Origin: a virus
Virus record (IMG/VR): IMGVR_UViG_3300010263_000121
DNA: 52,921 bases
Direction: 5' to 3' (one strand)
Shown here piece by piece: positions 16,534-37,471 of this stretch. A program made the position numbers and the translations under genes. Under the pieces are notes generated by a model. It saw only the letters and a list, made by a program, of their open reading frames with translations, was not told the origin of the DNA and did no database searches. Within the stretch, counting starts at the first letter, position 1, and every line of letters begins with the position of its first letter.

Positions 16534-18057
16534 TCATGATCTAAGGAGCTTTACCCTCTCTAACCAGACGTAATAGTCTTGGACAGCCAGGTTCATACAC
16601 TCTCTTCGATTCCTGGACGACGTCTGCTCAGCATATCTCTTGTTGTAATACAAAGTGAAACTGTGAACAGCGGCAGCCAAACCCGAGCAACATGTCTGTA
16701 ATTCATGAAGCTCCGGCGGAGCATACCCAAGTTCACCCTCTCTAGTGTACACCTCTTCGATCTTAGGTATTAGGCTGTCCATCTTGTCAAAAAGCTCACC
16801 TTCGCTGATATCCTCATTTTGGAACTGGTTATAGATGGAAATAGCCTCTTCGGCTAAGGAGATTAACTCTGCGATTATGTCTCGACTCTGCGCAGCAAAA
16901 ACCTCTGCGGGGACCGCATGATTGTTCCTCAAATCTCTCAACGTCTCATAGTATGGATAGAGGGTAAAATGCAGTCCTTTATCCACAAAATCGTGTTGGT
17001 AGCATCTGTACCACCAAGTTTTGTCTTGCTGTTCATCGACCCATGTAACACGGCACAAGAAATGACCATGTATCATGTCCTCTTCGTCTCGGCCATAGTA
17101 TATCCAGATAATGTTGGCGGGTTTACCCCTCCAGCGTCTCTCCGAAATCTCATTCTTATGAACCTCTTCATAAAGCAGTCTGTTCTTTATGTCAGTAGAT
17201 ATATCCCCAATCTCGGAAATCGAAAACGGTTCCTTAAGAATGACCTTTGCGGAATATCGTTTTGCGCTGCTAGAGTTTGTTGGTTCAACGTCATAGATAA
17301 TGTACCGTTCCGTTTCTTCGAAAATCCGATTGCGACAATAACGAGTGTATTCCTCCACATCGAAGTAGACTGTACCTACCATACTTCTTCGGAAAACAGG
17401 ATGCTGCTGCCTATCTGGATTCCGTTTATTCCACAGGTCAAGGTAAAGAGAAACTAATCTGCAGATATCGTTTAGCGACTTTTTTCCATGTCGCACTATA
17501 TGCTTGTCTTCCAGAGCATCACACAGAAAAGCAGTAAACAAACTCATTTCTTTGCCGGGGTGCCCCCACGATAATTGGTCTGCTTTACTTGACGCCAGAA
17601 CAGCATATCCTTTTCCTACAAGCTCTTCCACAGCGTGATGGATATCAAGTGAGACAGAACGATCCAAGCTAAAGTCACCGGCCATGCAGCAGTCGAGAAC
17701 GATAATTTTGGTCTTAGCTCGTATTCTTTCAAGAGAACATATGATATCTTGGGCACTAACAATAGTATCACTAAACTGGAGATAGTAGCAGGCTTGGCCG
17801 CTGCCACCATGTCCTGAAAAGTACAACATGAAGATATCATCTTCGGCCACACGAGAACCCAAGTCGACCAGTTCATCAGAAAACAGCTTTGCATTAACTG
17901 TTCCCGCTTCTCCCAAGGAAGCAATGTTTTCTGGTCGTACTCTCAGGCCACTCTCCAAGGCGCGTCTCATTGCAATGATATCATTGCGGCAGAATGGCAG
18001 ATTATAGTTCTTCGGCCAATAATTACTGACACCAACAAGAAAAGCCCATATTGCCAT
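16534..18057 (-). CDS. Caspase-like (peptidase C14 fold) protein with an uncharacterised C-terminal domain
   Basis: 507 aa. His/Cys dyad contexts YFSGHGG and VLDCCMAG lie in the N-terminal ~230 aa. The remaining ~270 aa have no motif I recognise. Confidence 0.65.
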   Translation of the reverse strand: MAIWAFLVGVSNYWPKNYNLPFCRNDIIAMRRALESGLRVRPENIASLGEAGTVNAKLFSDELVDLGSRVAEDDIFMLYFSGHGGSGQACYYLQFSDTIVSAQDIICSLERIRAKTKIIVLDCCMAGDFSLDRSVSLDIHHAVEELVGKGYAVLASSKADQLSWGHPGKEMSLFTAFLCDALEDKHIVRHGKKSLNDICRLVSLYLDLWNKRNPDRQQHPVFRRSMVGTVYFDVEEYTRYCRNRIFEETERYIIYDVEPTNSSSAKRYSAKVILKEPFSISEIGDISTDIKNRLLYEEVHKNEISERRWRGKPANIIWIYYGRDEEDMIHGHFLCRVTWVDEQQDKTWWYRCYQHDFVDKGLHFTLYPYYETLRDLRNNHAVPAEVFAAQSRDIIAELISLAEEAISIYNQFQNEDISEGELFDKMDSLIPKIEEVYTREGELGYAPPELHELQTCCSGLAAAVHSFTLYYNKRYAEQTSSRNRRECMNLAVQDYYVWLERVKLLRS

Positions 18058-18585: not shown

Positions 18586-19446
18586 TTACACAGCCAAGTC
18601 GAAAGGCAGATCGCTGATATCTCTAAGCCGTCTGCCTTCAATTAGTGTTTGCAGCATCTCATGCTGGTCACGAACACCCGGATTTGCGTGGCTCAGTTCA
18701 TCAAGGGCTTCCTCAAGCTCATACAGAGCAAAATGATATACGCAGTCCAAATCGCCAGTTCCCAAGGCAAGAGATGCTATCCTCATTGGCAACGGTTCAG
18801 CCGTTACAGCAACAATATGAGGGCTGTTCCCTTTTCGATTCCGGATTAAATTCAGCGCTTCAGTTCTGGTGTTCTGTGCTCGATCAGAGCGCATCGTCCA
18901 TTTACAGGATATGCTTGCGTGTAAGATCGGCACGGGATCACCAGAACGATTGACGCGCCGTAACGGTGTATGCGTAGCAATAAACGGTGTATCTCCCTCA
19001 ACGCCAATATCCTCATCAGCTACGGGGATGCGGCACACCACGATGTCCGGCTTAATTATGTAGTCTGGACCCAGAGTGGCCATCAATTCTCTGCGGGTGT
19101 TGAGGATCTCGTTCAACTCGGCCAAATGCCGATACTGATCGAAATCCGATATCGAACGCTCAGTGCTAAATATCCACGGGCCTGGTCTTAGCCGGTTCAG
19201 CAACCTAAACGATCGCTCAAGATATTCCTTGGTTATGGTTCCAAAAAGGGCCCCAGCTGTTTGAGCAGATGGTGGCGTGGCGCAATGGGGGCCTCCAATC
19301 TTGCTTGCTAACCTTGCAGAGATCTGGCGGCTCGATTCACTAGACCGATCGGCTATATTGACGACACCGTCACGAACAGACAAAAGGCGTTGAGATATCT
19401 CTCTATGGTATTGCTGCCGCAAAGTGTTCATCTCGTTCAGAACCAT
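18586..19446 (-). CDS. Type II restriction endonuclease, NgoMIV/Cfr10I family (CCGG-core recognition predicted)
   Basis: IIKPDIVV (the PD element) and ISCKWTMRSDRAQN, which contains the S-x-K catalytic element and the R-S-D-R recognition motif described for NgoMIV-family enzymes. It sits between the MTase and Vsr. Confidence 0.7.
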   Translation of the reverse strand: MVLNEMNTLRQQYHREISQRLLSVRDGVVNIADRSSESSRQISARLASKIGGPHCATPPSAQTAGALFGTITKEYLERSFRLLNRLRPGPWIFSTERSISDFDQYRHLAELNEILNTRRELMATLGPDYIIKPDIVVCRIPVADEDIGVEGDTPFIATHTPLRRVNRSGDPVPILHASISCKWTMRSDRAQNTRTEALNLIRNRKGNSPHIVAVTAEPLPMRIASLALGTGDLDCVYHFALYELEEALDELSHANPGVRDQHEMLQTLIEGRRLRDISDLPFDLAV

Positions 19447-20524
19447 TTCCTATATTCTCCTTTCGCTCCTGGTTAAGCGCCTGCATAATGGACTTTGCCA
19501 GAGCATTGGCAACCACAGGACACACTGCTTCCGACACCTGACGGACCTGCGCAGAGATATTCCCCTTGAGGACGTAGTCCTTAGGAAATGCCTGAAGAAG
19601 CATTGCTTCATATATGCTCAACCGCCGGTGTCCGTTTGGGTGCACATGCACTTCCCGGTGGCCGTATGCAACCGTGTACGAAGGCCGATCCCAATCGAGG
19701 ATCTTAAATGACTTTCCTCCCATGCGCTTACTCAAACCATTGCTGAACTTAGGCGACCGCGGCACCAAGCACCAGTGATTAGGATGGACAGGAAATGTAT
19801 CAGGATTAAGCCCTTTTGCATTGTAGACTGGTTCAGGTAGACCCCATATGACATCTCTTACCGTTTTGCGCGGCACTAATGGATCTGGAACAGGAAACCT
19901 GAACTCGATATCAGGGTACTTCTCCTTGTTAAAACCCACAACAAACACTCTTGGCCTTATCTGAGCTACTCCGAAGTCTTGTGCATCGAGTGAACCCTGA
20001 AACAGTCGAAAGCCAGCTTCTTCGAACATTGCCTCAAACTTCTTGAACTTAGCAATATGCGAAGCTGACATCAGGCCAGGAACATTCTCAAACAGAAAAA
20101 AGTCAAGCCCGACTCTTTCCCGAAGCCCAGCAACGATTCTGGCATAATGCTCTGGCAATTTATGCCTTGGATCTTCGTCAGTAGAGTATACATTAGCGTA
20201 ACTAAACGATTGACAAGGAGGCCCCCCGATTACGCCGACAACATCGTATGGGCCAGCAGGCAGCGCTTCCGCAAGAATCGACTCTACACTAACCACGCTC
20301 AAATCCCGAATGCGTGCTACCGGGTTTTCGGGTCGATTGTAGTTATATGTCTCTACACAAACTGGATCGATGTCAGCTGCATAGAGGATGCTAGCGCCAA
20401 CCATCTCAAACCCGAGGTCCAGCCCACCAGGCCCAGAAAACAAGCTATAGCAGCCCATCTGAATAGAATCATATCCAAGTTCATAGGTACAGCGCTTTCT
20501 GTTGCGGTGATACATCTCTAACAC
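19403..20524 (-). CDS. DNA (cytosine-5)-methyltransferase, cognate to the adjacent REase
   Basis: FSGPGGLDLGF (I), GGPPCQSFS (IV), ENVPGL (VI), QIRPRVF (VIII). Confidence 0.9.
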   Translation of the reverse strand: MLEMYHRNRKRCTYELGYDSIQMGCYSLFSGPGGLDLGFEMVGASILYAADIDPVCVETYNYNRPENPVARIRDLSVVSVESILAEALPAGPYDVVGVIGGPPCQSFSYANVYSTDEDPRHKLPEHYARIVAGLRERVGLDFFLFENVPGLMSASHIAKFKKFEAMFEEAGFRLFQGSLDAQDFGVAQIRPRVFVVGFNKEKYPDIEFRFPVPDPLVPRKTVRDVIWGLPEPVYNAKGLNPDTFPVHPNHWCLVPRSPKFSNGLSKRMGGKSFKILDWDRPSYTVAYGHREVHVHPNGHRRLSIYEAMLLQAFPKDYVLKGNISAQVRQVSEAVCPVVANALAKSIMQALNQERKENIGNGSERDEHFAAAIP

Positions 20525-20834: not shown

Positions 20835-21701
20835 TTAAATAGGCAGATAGCGACTTGACGTGTCATCTGGTCTAACGTGAACATACTTCGAAGTCGTGGC
20901 CAGGGAAGCGTGTCCGAGCTGCGCCTGCACAAGATGGATGGGTGCACCGCGATCCAATGCGTGCGTCGCGTGACTATGGCGCATGAAGTGCGGGCTGACG
21001 TCTTTCTTGATTCCCGCTCGCTTCGCTGCCTCTTTGACAATAGCCCACATCCTGCACGTAGAGAGCGGATTTCCTTTCTGAGAGACCCAAACAGGATCAT
21101 CAGGCTGCCAGTCTTCTGGCCTGATGTCCTCTAAAAGCTCAAGTGTCTCCTTGGTGAGCTTGATAAACCGATTCTTGCCGCCTTTACCGTGCACAGTTAG
21201 GACCCCATTATTTATGTCTTTCCAGCACATTTTATGGGCCTCTTCGACCCTGACTGCGGTGGAGTAGAGGAATCTAATCAACACCTTGTCTCGAAGCTTA
21301 GGGGTATATTCAATGAGCTTAAAGACCTCTGTCTCGGTCAGGATGCGGTTTGACAGCTCATTGGGGATCTTAACGCTTTCCAGAGCGGCACCCACGTTCG
21401 CCACAGTAAACCCGGCCCTGTATGCAAACGCGAGCAGCGACTTGACTGCAGCGAGCTTCCGCGCCTGAGTTGCCTTTGCCAACCCCTGCAGGCTGTTCAG
21501 ATACTCGACCAGATCAGGAAGCGTAATCTCTTTGAGATGTTTGCCGCCGATGAAGGCCAAGAATTGCTGAATGTCATAGCGGTAGACCCTCTGCGTCTGT
21601 CTGGATTTCCGAGACAACCACAGTTCGATTATCCTGTCGTTGGATGCATTCAGCCTCGGCTGAAGATACATCGCGATACCCTGCTGGAGTTCGATTGCCA
21701 C
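20835..21701 (-). CDS. int: Tyrosine recombinase (phage integrase / XerC-D-like)
   Basis: 288 aa with an N-terminal SAM-like core-binding domain. Catalytic contexts are VRVEEA (R), HFMRHSHAT (HxxR) and GHASLATTSKYVH (H..Y). The start is GTG with a GGAGG RBS. Confidence 0.9.
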   Translation of the reverse strand: MAIELQQGIAMYLQPRLNASNDRIIELWLSRKSRQTQRVYRYDIQQFLAFIGGKHLKEITLPDLVEYLNSLQGLAKATQARKLAAVKSLLAFAYRAGFTVANVGAALESVKIPNELSNRILTETEVFKLIEYTPKLRDKVLIRFLYSTAVRVEEAHKMCWKDINNGVLTVHGKGGKNRFIKLTKETLELLEDIRPEDWQPDDPVWVSQKGNPLSTCRMWAIVKEAAKRAGIKKDVSPHFMRHSHATHALDRGAPIHLVQAQLGHASLATTSKYVHVRPDDTSSRYLPI

Positions 21702-22265: not shown

Positions 22266-22511
22266 CTATTCTAGCGTAAGCTGATGCTTTTTGCTAAGCC
22301 ATTCCTTCCATTCCTGCTCGATGTCTCTGCCCATCACATTGGCCAATGCCTGAAAGTGCTCTGGCTTGGGCGTATTAGCACCACACTCCCAGCTCTGCAC
22401 GGCGCTCACTGAGACTCCCACAAGCGATGCAAAGACCATTCTAGACAAGCCCTGGTTCTTTCTGAACACCAGCAGCGGATTTTCCTCGATCCATTGTTTG
22501 ACATTCTTCAC
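22266..22511 (-). CDS. XRE-family HTH regulator (Cro/CI-type)
   Basis: HTH segment QGLSRMVFASLVGVSVSAVQSWECG. I place the start at GTG 22511, with AAGGAG 9 nt upstream, rather than at the track start 22565. Confidence 0.7.
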   Translation of the reverse strand: MKNVKQWIEENPLLVFRKNQGLSRMVFASLVGVSVSAVQSWECGANTPKPEHFQALANVMGRDIEQEWKEWLSKKHQLTLE

Positions 22512-22614
22512 GGTACAATTCTCCTTTCCGACACTTTCACTAGTAATACTACCACTAATCGTCATTCCTTACCAGCCCATATCTGCATTACCAGCACTGT
22601 CATTACATGGCATC

Positions 22615-22639
22615 AAAAAAAGCGGCTCTTTCGAGCCGC
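22615..22639 (-). terminator. Rho-independent terminator after the ATPase gene
   Basis: On the minus strand: GCGGCTC GAAA GAGCCGC followed by TTTTTTT. Confidence 0.8.
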
Positions 22640-22645
22640 CAGCTC

Positions 22646-23788
22646 CTACTTCTCAACACCTAGGTATTCCGTCGCGATGATGTCTATGTTCTTCTGCCAT
22701 TCCTGAAGCTCCCCGACCGTCATTCCCTCAGTCAGCCTGTCGTGATCCTGCACTTCATCGCCTCGAATGTCGTAGAGCAGCATCTTGAGGGTAGCGTTAT
22801 CTAGGCCCAGTTTCAACCCGTACTTGTAGACCTCCATGATATCCTCTCTGGCGGCAAGCTTGTTCAAATTGACTTCACCAGAAGCCGCAGGAGCCTCGTT
22901 TTCGAGAGGGGTAAGGTGATTACCCTCTGAATTTGGAACAGCGTCATATTGGGCTTCTAAATCGCTCTCGCGAGGTTCGGCCTTCTCTTTGACCTCTCTA
23001 GCTGGGCTTTTCCCCGTCGGTTTCTTCTCTTCCTTAGGCTTCACTTCCTCAAGCTCCACCTGAGGGAGAACTATCTCCCCCGGGGCCCCCATGACAAGTT
23101 TGGCGATGATCTCGGTGAACGAGGGCCTCTCAAGCACCTTCACCTGATCGATGGGTTCATTCCGGAAGCCGTTCTTGTAGACTTCGGCGGTGAAGTTTGG
23201 CAGAAGCCGGAGGTGGATGTCTACGCGGTAGGGGAGCTTCTTATACCCCTCCAGGACGTAATCTCCCGTCCTCTTACCGTCCTCTGTGTACTCGTCCTTA
23301 ATCCGGCCCGTTACCACACAGTAGTAACCCTTCTCCCGGATGAGCTTGAGCATATTGTCGATCTTCTCCCAAACACGGGCCCAAATGTAGGTTGGGTAAA
23401 TCTTCTCCACCTTCGCTTCCTCTAAGTACTCAAGCTCGGCCAGGGCCTGGAGGTCGGAACCGGAATCGATCACGATGGTTCCCCCGTTGTGTTCTGGGAA
23501 GACCTTCTGAATGAGAATCTGGCGGATGTCATTGAAGGTCGTGATCTTCTTCCGATAGACCTTCTTCGTGCCGGCGAACTTCGCGGCCACGACATCAGCC
23601 CTGTTTTCTGTGTCCAGGATGAAAATGGGCTCTGGAAAAGTCATGGAAAAGTGGGTTTTGCCCACTCCCTGCATACCCTCAACGAGCACCGTGAAAGGCA
23701 TCTGCCTCGGATCGGATGGTATCTCGTCCCAGTCGATCGGCACCGCCTGTTTCATCCTGACAGCCTGCTTTTGATTGGTATTGGTCAT
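22646..23788 (-). CDS. AAA_24 / Sak4-like phage NTP-binding (RecA-fold) protein with a long C-terminal extension
   Basis: Walker A GMQGVGKT near the N-terminus, Walker B-like TIVIDSGSD, then a Lys/Glu/Pro-rich linker and an extra C-terminal domain. Confidence 0.55.
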   Translation of the reverse strand: MTNTNQKQAVRMKQAVPIDWDEIPSDPRQMPFTVLVEGMQGVGKTHFSMTFPEPIFILDTENRADVVAAKFAGTKKVYRKKITTFNDIRQILIQKVFPEHNGGTIVIDSGSDLQALAELEYLEEAKVEKIYPTYIWARVWEKIDNMLKLIREKGYYCVVTGRIKDEYTEDGKRTGDYVLEGYKKLPYRVDIHLRLLPNFTAEVYKNGFRNEPIDQVKVLERPSFTEIIAKLVMGAPGEIVLPQVELEEVKPKEEKKPTGKSPAREVKEKAEPRESDLEAQYDAVPNSEGNHLTPLENEAPAASGEVNLNKLAAREDIMEVYKYGLKLGLDNATLKMLLYDIRGDEVQDHDRLTEGMTVGELQEWQKNIDIIATEYLGVEK

Positions 23789-23830
23789 TGAAATCCCCTT
23801 TCATATCCAGCCCTCGGTCAAGGCTACACG

Positions 23831-24301
23831 CTAGAATGGAATGTCCGTAATCTCGGCAAGATCAAGTTCATCTGCAGCTTGAGTTTCCCCAGAGGTGATC
23901 CACTCCACATTAAGCGTCCAAGTGTCCGCGTAGATTGCTTCCACCTTCTGCCGCCAGTCGTCTCCCAGTTTGGCCAACTCATTAAGGCCCGATTTCAGAG
24001 GCCGGAGATCCATCTGGAAGCACTTAGATTTAAGCTCCGGCGGGCATATCTTATAGAGGGCCTCAACAAGCTTCCGATCCCGAATCTTAGACTGTTTCCT
24101 GAGCCTGATTTTGGCAAAGGGCGTAAGTTTCAAGGTAGCACTCTCGGCCTCCATCCGGCTTATCAAAACAGCCCGCGCTGTATCGCGGGCCATACGAGCC
24201 ATCTCAAACACTTCTTCCAAGTCCTTAAGCTGCGCCACGATTTCCTCATCAGACATCGCTGCGAAATCCAGGGCTTCCCCTGTTTTCAGGTTGACTATCA
24301 T
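23831..24301 (-). CDS. Hypothetical early protein
   Basis: 156-aa ORF upstream of the ATPase. Only a weak resemblance to Gp157-type proteins. Confidence 0.35.
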   Translation of the reverse strand: MIVNLKTGEALDFAAMSDEEIVAQLKDLEEVFEMARMARDTARAVLISRMEAESATLKLTPFAKIRLRKQSKIRDRKLVEALYKICPPELKSKCFQMDLRPLKSGLNELAKLGDDWRQKVEAIYADTWTLNVEWITSGETQAADELDLAEITDIPF

Positions 24302-24343
24302 CTCTATTCTCCTTTCAAGGTTCGATCACTTAGCAACGACGGC

Positions 24344-24661
24344 CTAAAGGGCTTCCCGGATGGCTTTGGCTATCTTCTTTGCCTGCCACTTCCAGATGCG
24401 GGAGAACTCAAGCTCTGGAATACCGCCGCCCGATGTCTCGATGATGATCTTCCCGGTGAGGATACCGCGCTTAACCCGTACAGATGCGATCCTCTCCAAG
24501 CGAATTTCGTCCTCATCTGTTTTGAGGCCGAACCAGGCACGGCGAGTGATATGCACCTTCCCATCCTTGATTTCGAGCTTGTCCGGAAGAATTGTCCTAG
24601 TAACCGACCTAGCTAAAAGCCTTGAGCCTCTGAATGTCATAGCCACAGCCATCTCGTTCAT
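24344..24661 (-). CDS. Bacterial PH-domain (bPH_2-like) protein
   Basis: 105 aa. The segment ILPDKLEI..GKVHITRR......IRLERIASVRVKRGILTGKIIIETSGGG follows the bPH pattern. Confidence 0.5.
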   Translation of the reverse strand: MNEMAVAMTFRGSRLLARSVTRTILPDKLEIKDGKVHITRRAWFGLKTDEDEIRLERIASVRVKRGILTGKIIIETSGGGIPELEFSRIWKWQAKKIAKAIREAL

Positions 24662-24677
24662 CCTTTCATATTGGTAT

Positions 24678-24697
24678 TGGTAGTAGTATCACTACCA
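24678..24697. promoter_or_regulatory. Operator-like inverted repeat TGGTAGT-N6-ACTACCA at the head of the early operon
   Basis: A 7-bp perfect inverted repeat separated by AGTATC. A 19-bp core (GTAGTAGTATCACTACCAC) recurs exactly at 32008-32026, and a related site lies at 22538-22557. Confidence 0.5.
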
Positions 24698-24808
24698 CTA
24701 CCAACATACTACCGTCAAAAGCAACTCTTGTCTGCGTCCAAATTCATCCAAATGCCGATAGGAAGCGCATTTTCACGATCTACCCCCTTTCATTTTTTCC
24801 CACCTAAC

Positions 24809-24835
24809 AAAAAAGGCAGGACGTTTCATCCTGCC
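24809..24835 (-). terminator. Rho-independent terminator after the GGCT gene
   Basis: On the minus strand: GGCAGGA tgaaacg TCCTGCC followed by TTTTTT. Confidence 0.75.
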
Positions 24836-24872
24836 GTAAACCCTCGACTCGTATTAAGGCACGACGGCCCTG

Positions 24873-25286
24873 TTATCCAGCTTTCCTTGCGCTCTTCAGA
24901 TAAGCCCTGAAAAGCCCCTGAGGATCGATCTTGAAGTCCATACACCCCTGAAGGCAGACATCCAAGTAGCCCTTCGAAGGCTCCGCTTCCTTCCCTTTGG
25001 TCAAGATATAGGTCATGGCCGTAAGACCATCAGGGAAGGTGATGAAGTGCTTTTCGTACCATCCCGGATATCCCTCATAGCGGTCTAGCATCTTCTCGTC
25101 AAAATCCGAGATAAGCCAGAGCCCGCCTCTTACGACCCCTTTCGGATTCCTCACTATCGTTAAGACCCGTCTGAACTGAAGCTCCCAGCCCGGAAGATCG
25201 CGCGCTCCCAAAGGCACCGCATCAGGGCACCGGTTAGACATCTGTTCCATATTAAGGTTCGATCCATAGGCAAAGTAGTATTTCAC
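24873..25286 (-). CDS. Gamma-glutamylcyclotransferase-like (AIG2/GGCT fold) protein
   Basis: The N-terminus YFAYGSNLNMEQMSNRCP is the GGCT-family signature. 137 aa. Confidence 0.75.
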   Translation of the reverse strand: MKYYFAYGSNLNMEQMSNRCPDAVPLGARDLPGWELQFRRVLTIVRNPKGVVRGGLWLISDFDEKMLDRYEGYPGWYEKHFITFPDGLTAMTYILTKGKEAEPSKGYLDVCLQGCMDFKIDPQGLFRAYLKSARKAG

Positions 25287-25288
25287 TG

Positions 25289-25549
25289 TTATTCCCCTTC
25301 CAAGATGATGATAAAGCCGTTCTCTTCCAAGTCATTGATGAAATTCTCGCAGGAATCCGCCCTGATCACCGCGCCGTTCCACTCTTTAAGGCGCCTTGAG
25401 ACGTTTTTCATGTAAGTCCAGACATCTTCATCGACACGAAGGCGCGCCGACAAGCGGAGCATATCAACGACATCGGCAAACGTCTGGCCGGAGAAGGTTT
25501 CCCCGTCCCCGATCCACTTAATCCTGATCACAATATTCCCCCATCCCAA
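25289..25549 (-). CDS. Small hypothetical protein between the amidoligase and GGCT genes
   Basis: 86-aa ORF tightly packed between the two enzyme genes. Confidence 0.45.
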   Translation of the reverse strand: MGWGNIVIRIKWIGDGETFSGQTFADVVDMLRLSARLRVDEDVWTYMKNVSRRLKEWNGAVIRADSCENFINDLEENGFIIILEGE

Positions 25550-25559
25550 GAGAGGCAGG

Positions 25560-26348
25560 CTAAGCTACCTCTCTTCTTGATTCCTGTCCCCGGAAGTGGG
25601 TAATCCGTCCGGCAATAAACTCGATAGCACCTTTGACGAGAGAATCCATCTCGTCTCCCTTGTTATGTAAGGCGAACTCCACGGCCACAAGCCTCCAGGG
25701 ATTGGTCCTCTTGTACCTCTGATCGTCGAAGGTTACTTTGAGCTTCCGAGGGGATTCTGCCCTGTTTACGATCATCTGGGTGAAGACGATCCAGTTGACG
25801 ATCTTCTTCGCATTAAGTGTCCCCGAGTGCTGGCGGAACTCAACCGTTCCGTGGCGGCTCCAGCTCATAATATTCACCTTAAAGTACCTTGAATTCCAGA
25901 AATCCATGAGGCCCTCAATGGTGGTGATTCTCTCGAACTGATCAAGCCTTCTTTCTAGCACGGAGCGGTTGCTCATACAGTAAGGGTTCCCAGACCCCCT
26001 CCGGCTCTTAGGAAGCGACTCGTCGATTGTAAGCTCCATCCTGGCATAGAGGCGGTAAACGTTCTTCCATTCATTTACCGTCCATGTCCCGGCATCGTGG
26101 TGGACATGAAGCCCACAGGTTTCATCAACCGTAGCCCCATTCTCCTTCAGGATTTTAACGGCCTTCTCGATAAGCTCAAGGCCCTGGATACCCTTCAGAG
26201 GAGGGCTCACAAGCTCCCATCCGCAGCGGTGCTTCGTGTTCCTCACGGAAGCATCGTAGACGATCTTCCAGGTGGACCTGCGCTGGTGGTTATACCCTTC
26301 ATAGGCCGTTACGAGGCCCGCATCGGTAAGTTTCCTTGCGAGCATCAT
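25560..26348 (-). CDS. Putative amidoligase (Amidoligase_2, glutamine-synthetase-like fold)
   Basis: GWELVSPPLKG ... ETCGLHVHHD matches the E-x-VSP and CGxHVH signatures of the phage/plasmid amidoligase family. Confidence 0.7.
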   Translation of the reverse strand: MMLARKLTDAGLVTAYEGYNHQRRSTWKIVYDASVRNTKHRCGWELVSPPLKGIQGLELIEKAVKILKENGATVDETCGLHVHHDAGTWTVNEWKNVYRLYARMELTIDESLPKSRRGSGNPYCMSNRSVLERRLDQFERITTIEGLMDFWNSRYFKVNIMSWSRHGTVEFRQHSGTLNAKKIVNWIVFTQMIVNRAESPRKLKVTFDDQRYKRTNPWRLVAVEFALHNKGDEMDSLVKGAIEFIAGRITHFRGQESRREVA

Positions 26349-26427
26349 GATGTCTCGTTCGCTTAGGTTCGAGAACTCAATCTCTACCCCGAAAAGTCTG
26401 GGAAGTCAACACTTTTCCGGACATTCC

Positions 26428-27306
26428 TTAAGCGACACCAACTAAAGATAGCTCTTGGTACTGGTTCAACCATTCTAACGGGCTAAGATAACCTAAGCGT
26501 TTTTGGACGCGGCGAGTGTTGTAAAAACCCTCGATGTACGCAAATATCGCTTGCCTGGCTTCTGCTCGAGTCTGGAAGTGGCGCCAGTGGACGGCTTCTT
26601 TCTTCAGATTTGCGAAGAAACTCTCACTCCAGGGGTTGTCCCCAGGTTTGCCGACTCTGGAAAAGCTTTGCTGGATTCCGTGCTTCTGGAGCAGTTTGGC
26701 GACAGACTCCGCTGTAAATTGGCTTCCACGGTCACTATGATGGATACAGCCGGCCAACAGCGGCCAGCGATGAAAGGCTTTTGTGAGAGTCCGTTCAACT
26801 AGATCTACCTTCATGTTGTCAGCCATTGTGTGGGCGAGAACAAGACCCGTTACCACGTCTTTGACCGTGCAGAGATACTCAAAGCCCTCAGCAGTCCGTA
26901 TGTAGCTAATATCACTGCTGATAACCTGGAATGGCTTGGTGATATCTAGATTTTGAACTAGATTTGGATACCCCGGCCCCCGAGCTTTCCGGCTATCGGT
27001 TAGAGAGCGCTGTCGGCGCCGGCGGTGTAGTGATACAAGACCCAACTCATCCATCATCTTCTTTACACGCTTGTAGGATGCGGTGTAGCCTTCTTTTCTT
27101 AGGCATCCGCAGATGCGGTCCACACCGTAGGTCTTGCCGCTTTTATCGAAAATCCTTTTGATGGCTTCGGTATACTTCTCTTGCCGCTCATCCCGTTCAT
27201 CCTTATTGGCCAACCAGTCATAATACGCACTGGTCGACACATCGAGACAGGCGGCCCACTTTGTCACAGGATACTCGGGATGAGTACGAATGAGTTCATA
27301 CTTCAC
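26428..27306 (-). CDS. IS3-family transposase OrfB (DDE/rve integrase core)
   Basis: HSDRGSQFT and the rest of the rve-domain pattern. It lies in the -1 frame relative to OrfA. Confidence 0.9.
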   Translation of the reverse strand: MKYELIRTHPEYPVTKWAACLDVSTSAYYDWLANKDERDERQEKYTEAIKRIFDKSGKTYGVDRICGCLRKEGYTASYKRVKKMMDELGLVSLHRRRRQRSLTDSRKARGPGYPNLVQNLDITKPFQVISSDISYIRTAEGFEYLCTVKDVVTGLVLAHTMADNMKVDLVERTLTKAFHRWPLLAGCIHHSDRGSQFTAESVAKLLQKHGIQQSFSRVGKPGDNPWSESFFANLKKEAVHWRHFQTRAEARQAIFAYIEGFYNTRRVQKRLGYLSPLEWLNQYQELSLVGVA

Positions 27307-27584
27307 TTCAGATTTTTCGCAAAGTAGGCCGCGGCTTTTTTTAGCATTTCGTTCTCCATCTTCAATTCAGCGAGTTCTAGCTGCAGCTTTCGAAGCTGGT
27401 CCTGTTGCTCAGCTACCTTGGTCTTTTCACCGCTTTCGGTATAGATTTTCCGCCAACGATATATCATGCTGTGGTGAATACCAAGATCTGCGCAGAACTC
27501 CTTAATGGGCTTTGTAGTGACGTAACTGAGTTTGACTGCGTTCTTGCGGAACTCATCGTCATAGCGCTGTCGGATTTTGGACAT
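27303..27584 (-). CDS. IS3-family transposase OrfA (HTH)
   Basis: 93 aa, starting MSKIRQRYDDEFRKNAVKL, with a leucine-zipper-like C-terminus. An A7 slippery run (plus-strand T7 at 27336-27342) sits before the stop. I translated the -1 frame from there into OrfB and it is open (..KKSRGLLCEKSEVKYELIRT..). Confidence 0.9.
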   Translation of the reverse strand: MSKIRQRYDDEFRKNAVKLSYVTTKPIKEFCADLGIHHSMIYRWRKIYTESGEKTKVAEQQDQLRKLQLELAELKMENEMLKKAAAYFAKNLK

Positions 27585-27652
27585 GATCAGTCTCCTTTGC
27601 TCTCATAGTACTATCTTATCATCATGTCCGGAATTGTAACATAGACCCTACC

Positions 27653-28579
27653 TTGGTAGTATTCGTTGAGAAGTATTCGTCTAACACAGTCGCTGATCTC
27701 CAAAACATCTATGATGGTGCCATTGCCAAGATGGCTGTTGATGGACTCTTCCATGAAGATGATGACGGAGAACTCAAGTTGGATGAAGACATAGATCAAG
27801 ATGACATTGACGGTGTAGCCAAACTCGTAGCCGAACTTGGAATTCCAGCCCTCAAGACCGAGTTGCAAGCGAAACTTGACAAGGCACAAGGTTTTTGGGA
27901 GGATATAGTTTTGGCTGGTGTAGAAGAGACGATACGTGGGCTATTCCTGATAAAAGGTGAGGATAACGATCTAGGACCTATCCCAACCGAGGCGGATCTG
28001 GCCAAGTTGGACCACAAAAAACTGACCTTGGGTGATGAAGTTAACCTCGAAGAAGTGGAGAATGCAGAAAAAGAATTAGACAAGTACGAGGGTAGCAAAG
28101 ACGTAGCCCATCTCTATGAGTTAATTGCTCTCGCCGAGGAACTAGCATGGGTGAATAAGATTAACAATGATATTATGGATGTTGACAGTTTTGTGACGTT
28201 GGTTGTAACCGATCTGCGGATTGAAGATTACATTGCACTTACCGGTGCTCAAAGGACTGAGCTTGCTGGTCGGTTGGTCGAAGCCTGGATTGATGACGAC
28301 TTTGAAGGTTTCGAGTCCAAGGCAGAGTTCATTGAAGCAGTAGTGGCTGAAGTTGCAGATTATCTTGACCTCATTGGCGCTGTAAATGCCGCAATCCAGG
28401 CGAAAGACAAGAGGGACTTGGTTGCTGCGTTGGAAGATCTAGATGAGGATTATGCTGAGTGGAAGTTCCATAAACAGCTACCTGTGGCAGAGTCTATGAT
28501 ATCTGATGCACCCACTCCGTTTGTGCCATTCGAGACAATTAATGATATTCTTGTTGATGCCGGATTAAAGGCAATCTAA
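27653..28579 (+). CDS. Highly acidic hypothetical protein, possibly 5'-truncated by the IS3 insertion
   Basis: The ORF is open from 5 nt after the IS3 end. The first in-frame ATG (27731) has no obvious RBS. It is D/E-rich and helical, and resembles repeat modules of Firmicutes surface proteins. Confidence 0.4.
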   Translation: MVVFVEKYSSNTVADLQNIYDGAIAKMAVDGLFHEDDDGELKLDEDIDQDDIDGVAKLVAELGIPALKTELQAKLDKAQGFWEDIVLAGVEETIRGLFLIKGEDNDLGPIPTEADLAKLDHKKLTLGDEVNLEEVENAEKELDKYEGSKDVAHLYELIALAEELAWVNKINNDIMDVDSFVTLVVTDLRIEDYIALTGAQRTELAGRLVEAWIDDDFEGFESKAEFIEAVVAEVADYLDLIGAVNAAIQAKDKRDLVAALEDLDEDYAEWKFHKQLPVAESMISDAPTPFVPFETINDILVDAGLKAI

Positions 28580-28805
28580 TAGTAATTTGAACTGATGGGT
28601 AGGCCCCGCAGTAGAATACTGCGGGGCCTCTCTTGTGCGCCACGAATCTGACCATGAGAGTTCGATATTGGCTGGAAGTTGCCACTCTTTAAGCATAATG
28701 GTGTCTAACGCGAGATGGAGTCCGAAGGAAGCGCTATGGGACAACCCCCTGGCCCGAAGAATGGTCCATAAAGATGTGTCGTAGCTGATAGGAGGCAAAG
28801 CTAGA

Positions 28806-29183
28806 GTGTTTGACTTTTTCCTGTTATGCCTGATACTCTTGATACCACTTTCCTTAATCTGTATGGGTCTTCTATTTGTTAGGCGACCGCCCGAAAACAT
28901 TAATTGGCTCTTTGGTTATAGAACCCCCTTGTCCATGAAAAACAAGGACACCTGGGATTTCGCCCACCGCTATTTCGGCCGTCTAGCCACTAAAACCGGC
29001 TGGAGCATGCTGGTGGTCACTATCCCTGTGATCGCCTTGCTGTGGGGACGGAACTCAGATATCATTGGCTGGGCAAGTGCCATCGTCTGCCTGCTGCAAT
29101 GCATAATTCTCCTCGCGCTCATCTACCCCACAGAAAGGGCACTTAAAAGGACTTTCGACGCGGATGGCAAACGTAGGAATTGA
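28806..29183 (+). CDS. SdpI/YhfL-family membrane protein
   Basis: 125 aa. The segment NWLFGYRTPLSMKNKDTWDFAHRYFGR lies between hydrophobic helices, as in SdpI-family immunity proteins. Confidence 0.55.
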   Translation: MFDFFLLCLILLIPLSLICMGLLFVRRPPENINWLFGYRTPLSMKNKDTWDFAHRYFGRLATKTGWSMLVVTIPVIALLWGRNSDIIGWASAIVCLLQCIILLALIYPTERALKRTFDADGKRRN

Positions 29184-29271
29184 TGTATGTTTTCATTCGC
29201 AGGATCCTGCGACGGTTGGGCATCAGACTTCGGAGTTGTGTTAGTGTTGAGTGGGGGAGGATTGGGACTGC

Positions 29272-29832
29272 ATGAAGATCGAGACACTGAGGCACGAACA
29301 TGAAAAACACATCCACCAAGCAGCTCAGCTTCTTGTGGAGGGCTTTAAGGACAATTGGCCTGATTCCTGGCCAGATTTGCCCTCTGCTGTGGATGAGGTT
29401 AGAGAGTGTTTGGGGGCAGATAGAATCTGCCGTATTGCTGTTGATGACAGCGATAACGTTGTGGGCTGGACTGGGGCAATCAGTCACTATAAAGGTCGAG
29501 TGTGGGAGCTCCATCCCCTGGTTGTTGATATCAGATACAGAAACCAGGGAATCGGAACGCTTCTGGTCAGAGACTTGGAAGAACAGGTTCGCTTGCGCGG
29601 TGGGATTACGCTCTACGTAGGCAGCGATGATGAGAATTACATGACTTCTCTCTCCGGCGTTGACCTCTACGACAATCTTTGGACCAGAATAAGCGGGATA
29701 GAAAATTTGAAAGGCCATCCTTATGAGTTTTACCTGAAGCTGGGCTTTCAGATTATCGGCGTCATCCCCGATGCCAATGGCTTAGGCAAACCGGATATTA
29801 TCCTCGGCAAGCGGGTCATCCCGTGGGCATAG
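29272..29832 (+). CDS. GNAT acetyltransferase, AAC(6')-I-type (AAC(6')-Ii-like)
   Basis: WELHPLVV, RNQGIGTLLV, GGITLYVGSDDEN and HPYEFYLKLGFQIIGVIPDANGLGKPDIILGKRV parallel, from memory, the enterococcal AAC(6')-Ii sequence. I chose ATG 29272, with a GGGGGAGG RBS, over the track start 29251. Confidence 0.65.
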   Translation: MKIETLRHEHEKHIHQAAQLLVEGFKDNWPDSWPDLPSAVDEVRECLGADRICRIAVDDSDNVVGWTGAISHYKGRVWELHPLVVDIRYRNQGIGTLLVRDLEEQVRLRGGITLYVGSDDENYMTSLSGVDLYDNLWTRISGIENLKGHPYEFYLKLGFQIIGVIPDANGLGKPDIILGKRVIPWA

Positions 29833-29943
29833 AGCTCAAAGTCCTAAGTCACCCTTCACCGGACCCGGGAAAACTCCGGCTCGAGTAACGGAGCGGGTAA
29901 CTGCGGTGTGTTTCATTTTCGTGTGGTAAGAGGATCCTGCCCC

Positions 29944-30198
29944 CTATTCATCTTGTGAAGTAGGGGACAGGATAAATTGGTGGCCGCACTCGGTGCAGGT
30001 GAGCTGCAGTTCTTTTTCAGGCAGATGCATATCTTCACTGCTGCCGCAGTTGGGGCATACAACCTGCGTGGGGGGCAGCGGTTTGGCGCGCAGAATGACA
30101 GCAGTGAACTGCTTCCCGCAGTCACAGGTAATCAAGTAACGACCGTGGAGATCCAGCTGTTCTCTTTTCCCGCAGCCCGGGCAGGTGAGAAGGGCCAT
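29944..30198 (-). CDS. Zinc-ribbon protein with four CxxC pairs
   Basis: CPGCG, CDCG, CPNCG and CTECG in 84 aa. RBS GAAAGGGGA. Confidence 0.55.
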   Translation of the reverse strand: MALLTCPGCGKREQLDLHGRYLITCDCGKQFTAVILRAKPLPPTQVVCPNCGSSEDMHLPEKELQLTCTECGHQFILSPTSQDE

Positions 30199-30212
30199 GA
30201 TAATTCCCCTTT

Positions 30213-30359
30213 CTAAAGCTCAGCAGAAAGTACCAGCAGTGCTAATATGAACAGCAGTAATAAGGCCGCTAGAAGGATAAATGGAAGGGGCTGCACTGGT
30301 GGCTGGATCTGTCCTATTTGAACATAATTACCCCTATTCACCGCTTGAGCAGTAAGCAT
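30213..30359 (-). CDS. Small tail-anchored membrane protein
   Basis: I place the start at the internal Met (MLTAQAVNRG...), which has a GGAAAGGGGA RBS. The C-terminal hydrophobic helix is LPFILLAALLLLFILALLVL. Confidence 0.4.
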   Translation of the reverse strand: MLTAQAVNRGNYVQIGQIQPPVQPLPFILLAALLLLFILALLVLSAEL

Positions 30360-30422
30360 TTTGATCCCCTTTCCATAGGAACTTAGGTAAAGGTGGTTGA
30401 CGGGGTCAACCACCTTTTTGGT

Positions 30423-30875
30423 TTAAGCCTCGACCGCGACAAACACTAGGTCAAAGTCGATGCTCATCCCTTGGATCAGGTCAGTAGCATTTGCATCCGG
30501 GAGACTTAACTCAAATTCCACATCCTCATCGGTAGCGGTTGCTAGGCTCCGACCGGCAGGTGGCTGCTGGATCAGACCTGCTAGACTGCCGGTGTAAAGT
30601 ACTGCTGGAGTGCCAGTAGGATCCGCTGTTACCGTGATCTCCAGCCTTTCAGCTAGCAAGCGGGCATCCTGAGGATTTGCACCTGACCAGTCAGCAGAAA
30701 CAAAATAAACTACGTCAACCGGACTGGTGTTTTCCACATTAATGTTTTGGGTGTCGGTGGAACCGCCAACCCAGTTGGTTTCGGTAAAAATCGCCGTAAT
30801 CGGATCCAATACTAAGTCAACCTGGGCAATTCCCACACTGTTGTTCTCATTCAACTGCTGAACAGTAAAAGGCAT
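30423..30875 (-). CDS. TasA/camelysin-like fold protein lacking an obvious signal peptide
   Basis: ATG 30875 is preceded by AAGGAGGTG. The C-terminal ...QGMSIDFDLVFVAVEA resembles the conserved C-terminal strand of the TasA/CalY family. This is a weak call. Confidence 0.3.
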   Translation of the reverse strand: MPFTVQQLNENNSVGIAQVDLVLDPITAIFTETNWVGGSTDTQNINVENTSPVDVVYFVSADWSGANPQDARLLAERLEITVTADPTGTPAVLYTGSLAGLIQQPPAGRSLATATDEDVEFELSLPDANATDLIQGMSIDFDLVFVAVEA

Positions 30876-31135
30876 GTTCTTCACCTCCTTTGGGATCATT
30901 TTATTCGGGACAGCTGTGCTTGTTCTAGGAACTGCACTCAAATGAAACGTGGGTCCTAGGGTGTTTTCAAGACTCATTCCCGAAAAGAAGGGAAATTATT
31001 GCAGGAAGCCGAATACAGTGTAGGTTTGATTTCTCGCATTCCCCTTGAAGAGTAAGTGAAAGTGTTCACAGCCACAGGCGAACTCAAAGTTCAGCAAAAC
31101 GGATGGAAATACGAGGAGTGATCTGGTTGAAACGG

Positions 31136-31624
31136 ATGTCCCTGCGCTGGAGGGTGCTCATTCCAGTGGTGGCAGCGATTTTTCTGCTGGCGGGAGCTAT
31201 TTTCCTGGTTTCCCAATACCTGATTGTGGATCAGGCGGAAACCATGGCCCTCAACAAGGTCCGTTCGGACCTTGCTTTAATGTACGAACTCATAGACAGC
31301 AGACTGCCCGGCCCCTGGCGCGGTGAGGGAGAGGGCCTCTATAAGGGCACTGAGCTGCTCAATAATAATAAGGAACTGGTGGACTGGTTAGCAGGCCTCA
31401 CTGGAAACACGGTAACAGTGTTCCGCGGCGGAACTAGAATTGCCACCACCGTGGTTTCCCAAGGCCAGCGGGCGGTTGGAACAGAAGCGGCTCAAAACGT
31501 GATTGACCAGGTTTTAAGGGATAAGAAGCCCTACTACGGCAAGGCCGACGTGGCGGGCAATCTCTACCAGACCGCCTATCGGCCCCTGTTGGATGAACAG
31601 GGGGAGGCGGTTGGAATGCTTTAG
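31136..31624 (+). pseudogene. Truncated sensor fragment (TM helix + single Cache-like domain; no transmitter)
   Basis: MSLRWRVLIPVVAAIFLLAG, then a Cache-like periplasmic domain, ends abruptly at ...EAVGML. The second TM helix and any HAMP, kinase or MCP module are missing. Confidence 0.5.
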
Positions 31625-31661
31625 GGAAGTTAAGGCCTGGCAGGACTAGGCACAAGGAGAA

Positions 31662-31940
31662 TTGGTGCTTCTGGATCGGAAGGAGCTGTACTCCTCAGAT
31701 GGCGCTTTCGACCCGGAAAAAATGATCGTAACGCTTAAAACCATGGCCCAGAAGGCGCTGCAGGACGGTTTTTCTAAACTGGCAGTAACTGGTGAGCTGA
31801 GCTGGCTGTTGGATTATGAGGATGCGGCAGATTTGATCCTGGAGTACGAGTGGACGCTGAACGAACACGTTTTTAAAAAGTATCCCATCTCCGCCCTCTG
31901 CCGCTACAATTTGGACAGGTTTTCACCCCATCTGATTAAC
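31662..31940 (+). pseudogene. MEDS-domain gene fragment
   Basis: AVTGELSWLL...EYEWTLNEHVFKKYPISALCRYNLDRF matches the C-terminal half of MEDS domains. It has no proper N-terminus or start, and the ORF degenerates after about 31940. Confidence 0.45.
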
Positions 31941-33583: not shown

Positions 33584-34027
33584 TTATCCTTTTCTCTCTG
33601 GCGCTCCATTCACGCCAGCGTAAAACTTGAATCTGGAATCCCAACTGACGTTAATTGCGATTCCTGGTTCTCCCCACTCTTTCGGATAATGGACGCCTGT
33701 TAAATGGTAATGAGTTGGAATTGGCATCCTTTTTCCGAATAGCTGCGTTGCGTCCTCATCGGTAAGGTGATTCACTATATATTCCGCTACAGACCAGCAG
33801 GCTAAAAGCCGCCTGTGGTCCTCTGAATAGGCTCGATTTAGGATTTCTTGCCTCTCTTCTTCCCAGCAGGTAAACTGCCCAGGACAAAGGCAGACAGATT
33901 CCCAAGAATTGCCCCACCATCCCGGCCTGAGCACCCTCTCGCGGATAACAGCCCCCACCGCCAGGCGGTCAAGCACGCCAAAGTCTCTTGCTTCACCGTA
34001 GATAGTCTTTGCCACGATTTCAACCAA
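33584..34027 (-). CDS. Cell-wall hydrolase, SleB-like (endolysin candidate)
   Basis: IYGEARD...AVGAVIRERV...PGQFTCW matches the SleB/Hydrolase_2 signature. It is the last gene of the tail operon. Confidence 0.7.
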   Translation of the reverse strand: MVEIVAKTIYGEARDFGVLDRLAVGAVIRERVLRPGWWGNSWESVCLCPGQFTCWEEERQEILNRAYSEDHRRLLACWSVAEYIVNHLTDEDATQLFGKRMPIPTHYHLTGVHYPKEWGEPGIAINVSWDSRFKFYAGVNGAPERKG

Positions 34028-34047
34028 GCCTTCTACCCCCCCTTCTA

Positions 34048-37056: not shown

Positions 37057-37067
37057 TCATCTCCCTC

Positions 37068-37412
37068 CTACTTCTCAATGACCAGAAGCTCAAGGCTTCT
37101 CCTATCAGGTGCCTCAAGGGCCCTTGTAACGCGGGTAACCCGCATGAAGGCTTCAATCGTAACTCCAGCGCCGAACTCGTCCAGATGGAAATCCCCTGCC
37201 TCGAACTTGTTTGCCTCCAGGTGATTGATTAAAGCATCCGCATCAGCCTTCTCCATCGGTCTTGTGGTCAACGTCCACTGCCTCTTCATTGCGATCACGT
37301 CCTGGCGCATCTTTCCCCCAGCTGTGCGCCTTCTATCGCCTATAACCTGCCTTTCAAGCTCGATGGCGTAGATGAGCGGTATGTCGATGCCGTCAAACTG
37401 AGCAGCTGCCAT
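37068..37412 (-). CDS. Small tail protein, paralog A
   Basis: 114 aa, collinear with 37472..37810 (IDxPLxY....E......RTAxGxM.......KRxWxLxTRPMxKADxDALIxxLE). Confidence 0.5.
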   Translation of the reverse strand: MAAAQFDGIDIPLIYAIELERQVIGDRRRTAGGKMRQDVIAMKRQWTLTTRPMEKADADALINHLEANKFEAGDFHLDEFGAGVTIEAFMRVTRVTRALEAPDRRSLELLVIEK

Positions 37413-37471
37413 CTTTACTCCCCCCTAAAAGACAAAAAAACGCCCGGACAGAACCGTCCAGGCGTCAAATG

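Follow-up and report, generated by a model that had tools for sequence, protein, structure and literature searches.

The 52,921-nucleotide viral sequence held as IMG/VR record IMGVR_UViG_3300010263_000121 (this whole stretch is hereafter called the window) carries on its minus strand a unit of three genes, encoding a predicted amidoligase of the glutamine synthetase (GS) fold, a small protein of 80 residues, and an enzyme of the gamma-glutamyl cyclotransferase (GGCT) fold. Comparison with related loci points to the ligase and the small protein as the conserved core of this unit, with the cyclotransferase as an optional addition. In the window itself, the ligase gene is truncated at its 5′ end by an IS3-family insertion sequence (IS).

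The amidoligase and its small partner

The association between ligase and small protein was surveyed at 80 loci from viral contigs and 80 from bacterial genomes, each anchored on an amidoligase, by searching the open reading frames (ORFs) with an iterated profile of the small protein; AIG2-type genes were counted within the fetched flanks. Among 79 viral-contig loci, the small protein was encoded at 66, immediately adjacent to the ligase at 59, and an AIG2/GGCT-type gene was present at 28. The corresponding figures for 78 loci from bacterial genomes, which included Bacteroidota, Desulfovibrionales, Spirochaetes, Cyanobacteria, Clostridia and others, were 75, 72 and 6. When the amidoligases were clustered at 70% identity, 68 of the 75 resulting lineages were accompanied by the small protein, 19 by an AIG2/GGCT gene, and 17 by both. 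In every counted case, the small protein was encoded downstream of the amidoligase and on the same strand. A reciprocal test began from proteins found through the small-protein profile alone, and all six had an Amidoligase_2 gene upstream on the same strand, adjacent at five of the six loci and with overlapping stop and start codons at three of these. Such overlaps, which occur at many loci, fit stoichiometric co-production of the two proteins. A preliminary description of this DNA had proposed checking how often the small ORF is conserved in such operons, and the answer is that it nearly always is; because its frequency (68 of 75 lineages) is set against only 19 of 75 for GGCT, the conserved core, as far as gene content can tell, is the ligase plus the small protein, and the cyclotransferase is optional.

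The window's ligase is, judging from profiles and modelling, a member of the GS-fold carboxylate-amine ligase family, an assignment already made in the preliminary description and now borne out by a Pfam profile search. The ORF read from its first ATG matches Amidoligase_2 (PF12224) with 134.9 bits against a cut-off of 22 (E 5.5e-39), spanning profile positions 29-244 of 245, and it also matches PHROG 2443 ('amidoligase') with an E-value of 6e-42. The sequence motifs quoted in that description for the unit were all found, in the stretches WELVSPPLKG, CGLHVHH, YFAYGSNL and NRCP. An AlphaFold2 model of the amidoligase that includes 16 untranslatable residues has a pLDDT of 95 and a pTM of 0.92, with the first strand at residues 2-9, and its best Foldseek matches in the PDB are glutamine synthetases, followed by Dop, PafA and gamma-glutamylcysteine synthetase (probability 0.9-1.0). 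Across 66 homologues, G3, E5 and E7 of the first strand are invariant, as are the C-G-L-H-x-H and T-x-E-F-R motifs. The first strand, FGVEIEF, is the counterpart of the FGPEPEF strand of GS, whose two glutamates bind the catalytic metals, and ATP-dependent amide-bond formation is the predicted activity of the family. In NCBIfam, the amidoligase reached 19.4 bits with its single match, TIGR02050 (the YbdK family), for which the cut-off is 176.4, and a search of PDB sequences returned no relative, including any solved GS. The window encodes no second amidoligase; in the genome collection, the best relative reaches 46% identity.

The small gene begins at GTG 25531, downstream of a GGGGGAA Shine-Dalgarno sequence, and its product has 80 residues, as in all close homologues, rather than the 86 first attributed to it. 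The family is large, with approximately 1,810 representative clusters (50% identity) at E <= 1e-3 and 372 at 1e-10, and nearly all of its members are stand-alone proteins of 73-110 residues. No match was obtained in Pfam (with 26 diverse members), PHROGs, PDB sequences, NCBIfam or PADLOC, and a search for Rosetta-stone fusions found longer members of 146-206 residues, none of them fused to a ligase or GGCT. The AlphaFold2 model predicts a beta-beta-alpha-alpha-alpha-beta order (pLDDT 83.6, pTM 0.70) that has no fold match by Foldseek in the PDB (best E-value 0.8), and in BFVD it matches uncharacterised phage proteins only. The family also has its variants, as seen among P0200, P0195, P0214 and P0308 from the library; one is a tandem duplication (155 residues), several carry C-terminal extensions of 70-130 residues that lack a Pfam match, and a subgroup of about 100-110 residues has an N-terminal extension of about 27 residues.

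Conservation within the small protein was read from 64 clusters. The best-conserved positions are glycines and hydrophobic core residues. Arg47 of the window protein is conserved in 86% of the clusters and is invariant in a 34-sequence alignment, and one acidic position is Asp or Glu in 88%. No column exceeds 28% Lys, and no Ser or Cys is conserved. The tail after the last strand runs from 1 to 65 residues; the window protein ends in ...ILEGE, and that of a lineage 68% identical in the ligase ends in ...ILEGDK. Because neither a Lys nor the C-terminus is conserved, the alignment mildly favours a subunit or adaptor rather than a tag. The earlier suggestion that the small protein might be the substrate thus finds little support, the C-terminal residue and the tail being variable. 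Granted that the protein is a functional partner at all, a role as subunit or adaptor, through specificity, activation or scaffolding, has somewhat more than an even chance of being correct, and a role as acceptor is rather doubtful.

Two particular identities were also tried and rejected. A Pup- or LysW-type tag was prompted by the ...ILEGE ending, and failed on a C-terminus that is not conserved and a protein that is predicted to be folded. A carrier resembling an acyl carrier protein (ACP) was prompted by the 'DS' in RADSCENF, and failed on a serine that is not conserved and the lack of a four-helix ACP fold.

It is conceivable, and we put it forward tentatively as falling short of probable, that phages have an amidoligase system of two proteins in which the small one is indispensable, either as a subunit acting in trans or as a new type of acceptor. 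Should it be a specificity or activating subunit, its invariant Arg would be expected at the active site of the ligase. Such a system would span Bacillota, Bacteroidota, Desulfovibrionales, Spirochaetes and Cyanobacteria, and the cyclotransferase- or amidotransferase-like partners would be its optional erasers.

The third gene starts at a GTG located 2 nt past the stop codon of the small gene, and its earlier assignment to the GGCT fold was upheld. Its product matches GGACT (PF06094) with 38.6 bits against a cut-off of 22.8, AIG2_2 (PF13772) with 28.2 against 27, and PHROG 2520 ('gamma-glutamyl cyclotransferase') with an E-value of 7e-27. It aligns with human GGCT (2PN7, E 4e-4), where YFAYGSNL is identical to human residues 19-26 and Glu71, counted from the alignment, falls on human Glu98, the catalytic residue. 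Enzymes of the GGCT and GGACT types cyclise a gamma-glutamyl group that has a free alpha-amine to 5-oxoproline, releasing the amine, and the same release of 5-oxoproline is predicted here. Since the gene is dispensable in three quarters of the lineages, its product is best seen, by analogy, as an optional eraser, and in other phage lineages Amidoligase_2 is flanked instead by a glutamine-amidotransferase-type protein. A PADLOC search for membership of a defence system gave no meaningful match for any of the three proteins of the module.

Beyond these genes, the amidoligase has recurrent neighbours only among DNA methyltransferases, namely ParB-methyltransferase-like genes in 13 of 75 lineages and D12-type methyltransferase genes in 6 of 75. 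In several unrelated phages (L177 at 3587-4541; L089, L092 and L178), the pair of ligase and small protein adjoins DNA methyltransferases, and at one of these loci a Com-like zinc-ribbon gene is followed by a D12 methylase.

The truncated ligase gene and the IS3-family element

Features of the unit and of the DNA upstream of it are collected in Table 1. Nucleotide homology between the window and its intact relatives (L009, 96.6% identical over 3.7 kb, and L001, 94%) ends exactly at 26399, which corresponds to codon 10 of the ligase by both blastn and junction alignment, and a terminal inverted repeat of the IS begins at that same position, abutting the codon. The closest database orthologue, P0010 (93% identity, 288 residues), begins MSVTAFDRERLFGVEIEF, and nine other orthologues of 283-298 residues share its N-terminus. 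In the window, the frame upstream of the first ATG reads stop-LPRLFGVEIEFSNLSERDI-MM. The FGVEIEF strand (26393-26373) keeps the reading frame but has no ATG, GTG or TTG ahead of it, and the first usable start is ATG 26348, or codon 27 of the intact protein, from which an ORF of 262 codons would be read. The G-x-E-x-E strand comes right after a stop codon contributed by the IS end, leaving the set of catalytic motifs incompletely translatable, and the H-x-H and E-F-R motifs are still present in the remnant. Because a product started at Met27 would be without the metal-binding G-x-E-x-E strand, the ligase is almost certainly inactive in this genome, and the module has very probably lost its 'attach' half here. 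The preliminary description had predicted a module for peptide ligation and removal, whose ligating part the window, with its 5′-truncated ligase gene, does not bear out, and annotation of the ORF as a 262-residue 'amidoligase' would be misleading. The small gene and the GGCT gene are intact.

Table 1. Coordinates of the three-gene unit and of the DNA inserted upstream of it.
Feature	Position in the window	Strand	Evidence
Intrinsic terminator closing the unit	24805..24835	(-)	9-bp G+C-rich hairpin at 24835-24815
GGCT gene, AIG2/GGCT fold, 137 residues	24873..25286	(-)	Pfam GGACT and AIG2_2, PHROG 2520
Gene for the 80-residue partner protein	25289..25531	(-)	GTG start, close homologues of 80 residues
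Amidoligase_2 gene remnant, codons 10-288 and stop	25560..26398	(-)	Pfam, alignment to intact orthologues of 285-288 residues, blastn breakpoint
IS3-family insertion sequence, ~1.25 kb	26399..27650	(-)	Pfam, NCBIfam, inverted repeats
IS3 orfB	27306..26428	(-)	rve, E 4e-20
IS3 orfA	27584..27303	(-)	HTH_Tnp_1, E 2.5e-14
Foreign segment, host-like genes and fragments mostly on the plus strand	27651..31935	(+)	gap in blastn synteny with L001, L002 and L003

The inserted element resembles other members of the IS3 family in its orfA/orfB arrangement with a -1 frameshift, its rve domain, its size of about 1.25 kb, and the TG...CA-type ends on its amidoligase-facing side. With the NCBIfam model transpos_IS3 it reaches 286 bits, the cut-off being 160; the overlap of orfA and orfB contains an A7G slippery run (27342-27335), and the imperfect terminal inverted repeats, of approximately 26 nt, have TTCCGGACAT in common. 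As it stands, the element is apparently intact. Unlike the family at large, however, it has no target-site duplication (its flanks read GTC and CCT) and sits between two truncated genes, for the gene on its far side also begins abruptly at the IS boundary. The missing duplication and the truncation on both sides point away from a simple insertion and towards a deletion or recombination that involved the IS. Together, the IS and a foreign segment of about 4.3 kb stand in place of 359 bp of the relatives, and the foreign DNA is absent from the related phages. Pfam finds in it an Endotoxin_C2 fragment, SdpI, GNAT, a partial sCache_3_3 and a partial MEDS, and the Endotoxin_C2 fragment is similar to domain IV of Cry toxins. 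The arrangement as a whole resembles an IS-mediated deletion or a capture of host DNA within a phage genome. A second copy of the IS was sought, with no nucleotide match in the phage collection and only a 69-nt transposase fragment in the plasmid collection.

The remaining 279 codons of the ligase contain no stops and no frameshifts, and the window-specific changes among them are 26 synonymous and 17 non-synonymous. Decay of the truncated gene was considered and ruled out, given the unbroken frame and a ratio (26:17) that gives no sign of relaxed selection. Since the remaining codons show no detectable decay, the IS event was probably recent. The ligase allele is also a mosaic; its identity to L009 at the nucleotide level is 93%, 43 codon changes being specific to the window, compared with 98.4% for the small gene and 99.8% for the GGCT gene, and this step in identity suggests a recombination breakpoint near the ligase stop codon.

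As first described, the unit was a tight operon with its own terminator, and its 3′ part fits that account. Three co-directional ORFs (26348..25560, 25549..25289 and 25286..24873) were listed on the minus strand; with the small gene started at its GTG, the ligase and small genes are 28 nt apart and the small and GGCT genes 2 nt apart, and a purine-rich Shine-Dalgarno sequence precedes each of the separated genes. The terminator hairpin reads GGCAGGATGAAACGTCCTGCC, then TTTTTTGTTA, with TTTTTTGTT after the 9-bp stem, and an identical element closes the unit in the intact relative L001. The account fails at the 5′ side, where the promoter, the Shine-Dalgarno sequence, the start codon and nine codons of the ligase are gone; the promoter region has been deleted and the downstream terminator retained.

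What was lost can be read from the relatives. In their 359 bp upstream of codon 10, a 67-residue gene is accompanied by a terminator-like hairpin, the promoter-like site CTGACA-17-TATATT (a match to the consensus only) and a palindrome, and the ATG has a GGAGA Shine-Dalgarno sequence before it. The full order in these relatives is thus terminator, promoter-like site, operator-like palindrome, Shine-Dalgarno sequence, amidoligase (288 residues), small protein (80 residues), GGCT and terminator, and the unit is flanked by the lysis genes on one side and by the early/recombination genes on the other. Such a layout is that expected of a phage accessory transcription unit, or 'moron', the putative promoter and upstream hairpin having been recognised in L001 as consensus matches.

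The palindrome, GGTAGTGGTAGT-N3-ACTACTACC, precedes three successive units of L001, including the amidoligase unit, each time between the promoter-like site and the Shine-Dalgarno sequence (5703-5726, 7059-7082 and 8830-8853). It occurs once in the window, at 24679-24702 upstream of the next gene, and not at all in shuffled sequence. The palindrome is probably an operator for a shared phage regulator, and the copy that precedes the amidoligase unit was lost with the IS event. The next gene itself (24344-24661), the first after the module terminator, encodes a 105-residue protein with bPH_3 and bPH_2 matches just below the cut-offs, and this PH-domain-like gene has the same position in the close relatives L001-L005.

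Predicted chemistry and competing explanations

The best overall explanation, to which we give slightly better than an even chance, is that the ligase and its small partner make a gamma-glutamyl amide that an optional GGCT erases. At the expense of ATP, the ligase would turn a carboxylate into an acyl phosphate and then join it to an amine, which may be a small amine or an amino group of a protein or of the cell wall. By parallel with GS, GshA and PuuA, the carboxylate is most likely the one in the gamma position of free L-glutamate. The 80-residue protein would serve as a stoichiometric, translationally coupled partner of the ligase. GGCT, in turn, would split the gamma-glutamyl amide into the free amine and 5-oxoproline, making the modification transient or self-limiting. 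The GS fold and a neighbour that cleaves gamma-glutamyl amides both fit such a product, formed from glutamate, ATP and an amine, and the gamma-glutamyl-amide chemistry taken by itself seems to us evenly balanced. As to biological role, one can guess at host takeover, superinfection exclusion or counter-defence.

Known enzymes offer partial parallels for this explanation. The phage ligase has in common with GS, GshA and PuuA the GS fold found by Foldseek, the G-x-E-x-E strand, G-x-H-x-H and E-x-R, all three being motifs of the GS type, and PuuA/PuuD likewise pairs a gamma-glutamyl ligase with an enzyme that cleaves gamma-glutamyl amides. A cyclotransferase of comparable purpose is BtrG, which removes the gamma-glutamyl protecting group in butirosin synthesis. 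Unlike GS, however, the phage ligase of 288 residues begins at the first catalytic strand, lacks the GS N-terminal domain, and comes with a separate small partner protein.

Several points weigh against this explanation. Glutamate as the acyl donor is suggested by the modelled fold and the neighbouring enzymes only, and the fold match to GS is itself distant (Foldseek E 6e-3 to 6e-2, TM ~0.42). The searched literature gives no biochemical result for any Amidoligase_2 protein. An AIG2-type gene found in only 19 of 75 lineages makes the eraser dispensable; the link between GGCT and the product of the ligase is a presumed one, the physical interaction between ligase and small protein is drawn from gene linkage, and a ligase and its eraser acting together would run a futile cycle unless they were kept apart in time or target. 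The small protein ends in Glu in 17 of 64 clusters and in Asp in another 6, an enrichment and not conservation, which gives an acceptor or tag role a little room. Finally, the IS junction might, in principle, have been created by the assembly, and a module that is broken in the window allows no conclusion on function in this genome.

Among the alternatives, it is unlikely, although better placed than the others, that the small protein is an acceptor or carrier, gamma-glutamylated or acylated by the ligase and later deprotected by GGCT. Precedents exist in LysX, which acts on LysW, and in BtrJ, which acts on BtrI, and the butirosin set BtrI/BtrJ/BtrG pairs a small carrier with an ATP-dependent gamma-glutamyl ligase and an AIG2-type cyclotransferase. 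By analogy, the phage unit resembles that set in its logic of attachment followed by cyclotransfer and in its three parts, including a protein of about 80 residues, and the tight linkage of translationally coupled genes and the enrichment of acidic C-termini also speak for an acceptor. The likeness ends with the parts themselves, since BtrJ is an ATP-grasp enzyme and not GS-fold, and BtrI is an ACP with a phosphopantetheinyl serine, for which the small protein has neither a conserved counterpart nor the fold. The predicted fold is also not LysW-like, LysW being a zinc ribbon, and the C-terminal Glu is not strictly conserved. Against any acceptor stand the absence of a conserved Lys, Ser or Cys, the variable tail with its alternative ...ILEGE and ...ILEGDK endings, and a sole invariant or near-invariant residue that is Arg.

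Two further proposals are less probable still, and we regard them as about equally improbable. In the first, the genes are auxiliary metabolic genes through which the glutamate, glutathione or nitrogen metabolism of the host (the gamma-glutamyl cycle) would be reprogrammed for phage replication. Genome papers interpret the genes in this way, and do so without enzymology. The low TIGR02050 score, however, shows that the ligase is not a GshA/YbdK orthologue, and the small partner is phage-specific, with no cellular counterpart in the searched libraries. The unit of the relatives, moreover, lies at a moron position with its own promoter-like site and terminator, and the genes are present in phages of very different hosts.

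In the second, an amino acid or amine would be added to a peptidoglycan or surface precursor, leading to superinfection exclusion, or to a modified DNA base. For the envelope version, two papers credit Iyer et al. 2009 with the prediction that the phiEco32 amidoligase modifies the cell wall and blocks superinfection, but Pfam assigns no protein of the unit to a signal-peptide, membrane or cell-wall family. The nucleic-acid version draws on the recurrent ParB-methyltransferase-like and D12-type neighbours, but only a minority of lineages show this linkage, which is typical of early regions in phages at large, and the left arm of the window and the neighbourhood of the module are devoid of base-hypermodification genes (hydroxymethylase, DNA kinase).

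Least credible of all, and highly improbable in our estimate, is tagging of the Pup or ubiquitin type, in which a PafA-like ligase would attach the small protein through its C-terminal Glu to host or phage proteins. In its favour, the fold search with the amidoligase returned PafA and Dop among its matches, a small protein gene lies beside the ligase gene as in pupylation, and the window protein ends in ...GE. Against it, Pup is a disordered protein with a conserved GGQ/GGE end, whereas a folded structure is predicted for the small protein (pLDDT 83.6) and its C-terminus shows no such conservation. There is no proteasome context, and the eraser is a cyclotransferase rather than a Dop-like hydrolase; a cyclotransferase cannot cyclise a Glu whose alpha-amine is tied up in a peptide bond and hence could not remove the tag.

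Phage setting, neighbouring cargo and meaning

The window is a phage or prophage, as the preliminary description had assumed, and its flanks are collinear with phage contigs at approximately 90-94% nucleotide identity. Positions 33600-39192 are 90% identical to contigs that encode a PhageMin_Tail tape-measure protein, a beta-helix tail protein and a lysin, and positions 22441-26399 are 94% identical to a block extending from the amidoligase to Sak4. Related phage contigs also encode an integrase.

The gene layout recurs in cultivated phages. Bacillus subtilis phage 031MP004 encodes an amidoligase (gp40), a 74-residue protein (gp41) with weak collinear similarity to the small-protein family (hhalign E 4e-4), and a GGCT (gp44). 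Phages of Porphyromonas gingivalis encode an amidoligase together with a clear 79-residue member of the small family (E 2e-19), and in Arthrobacter phage Laroye the amidoligase is accompanied by an AIG2-like protein and a glutamine amidotransferase, with no small protein. Amidoligase_2 genes are common in phages; tblastn located them in 75 deposited phage genomes, and scans of the collections added several hundred more amidoligase-matching stretches in viral contigs and bacterial genomes.

The window also holds other cargo. A complete type II restriction-modification pair lies at 18586-20524, consisting of a C5 cytosine methyltransferase (E 1e-50) and an NgoMIV-family restriction enzyme (E 5e-95). 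At 12827-14662 and 16534-18057 are a KAP-family P-loop NTPase, which matches the PADLOC candidate defence gene PDC-S49 (E 2e-59), and nearby a caspase-like Peptidase_C14, which matches PADLOC 'caspase' (E 9e-11); this NTPase and the caspase-like protein may be phage-borne defence cargo. Finally, positions 9348-10463, 15416-16402 and 20835-21701 encode a TnpB/IS605 OrfB-type gene with a Cas12f-like TNB domain, a ParA-type partition ATPase with an N-terminal helix-turn-helix, and a XerC-like tyrosine recombinase of 288 residues. The ParA-type ATPase and the recombinase hint at a plasmid-like prophage lifestyle.

Modules of this general kind are not new. Iyer, Abhiman, Burroughs and Aravind, in 2009, are said to have noted that GS-like amidoligases of phages and mobile elements have as neighbour an AIG2-type cyclotransferase or a peptidase resembling glutamine amidotransferases, and reportedly predicted the phage Amidoligase_2/AIG2 neighbourhood, which is presumably also recorded in the Pfam description of PF12224. 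The window agrees with those neighbourhoods in its ligase family, its AIG2/GGCT neighbour, its phage context and its predicted status. It differs from them in a ligase that is 5′-truncated by the IS3-family element, and in that the constant partner in its clade is the 80-residue protein and not the cyclotransferase. The remark made at the outset that no experimental function exists for such modules agrees with the full-text literature searched, in which we found annotation-level mentions and citations of Iyer et al. 2009 only, and no enzymology or genetics for any Amidoligase_2 member. The Amidoligase_2/AIG2 module is therefore of a known, predicted kind, and what appears to be uncatalogued, in the libraries searched, is the small-partner family and its standing as the constant companion.

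In this particular genome, the module has very probably been inactivated by an IS-mediated rearrangement. For the family, the finding bears on how its members are named and approached. Amidoligases are routinely labelled 'auxiliary metabolic genes', and no published assay behind that label was found. A constant 80-residue partner changes what testing should look like, in that ligase and small protein would be taken as a pair and the cyclotransferase as an accessory, and tractable models are at hand in Bacillus subtilis phage 031MP004, the B. cereus phages PBC5 and vB_BceS-M2, and the phages of Porphyromonas gingivalis. If the two-component system tentatively proposed above is real, the true functional unit of these phage amidoligases would be the ligase together with its small protein.

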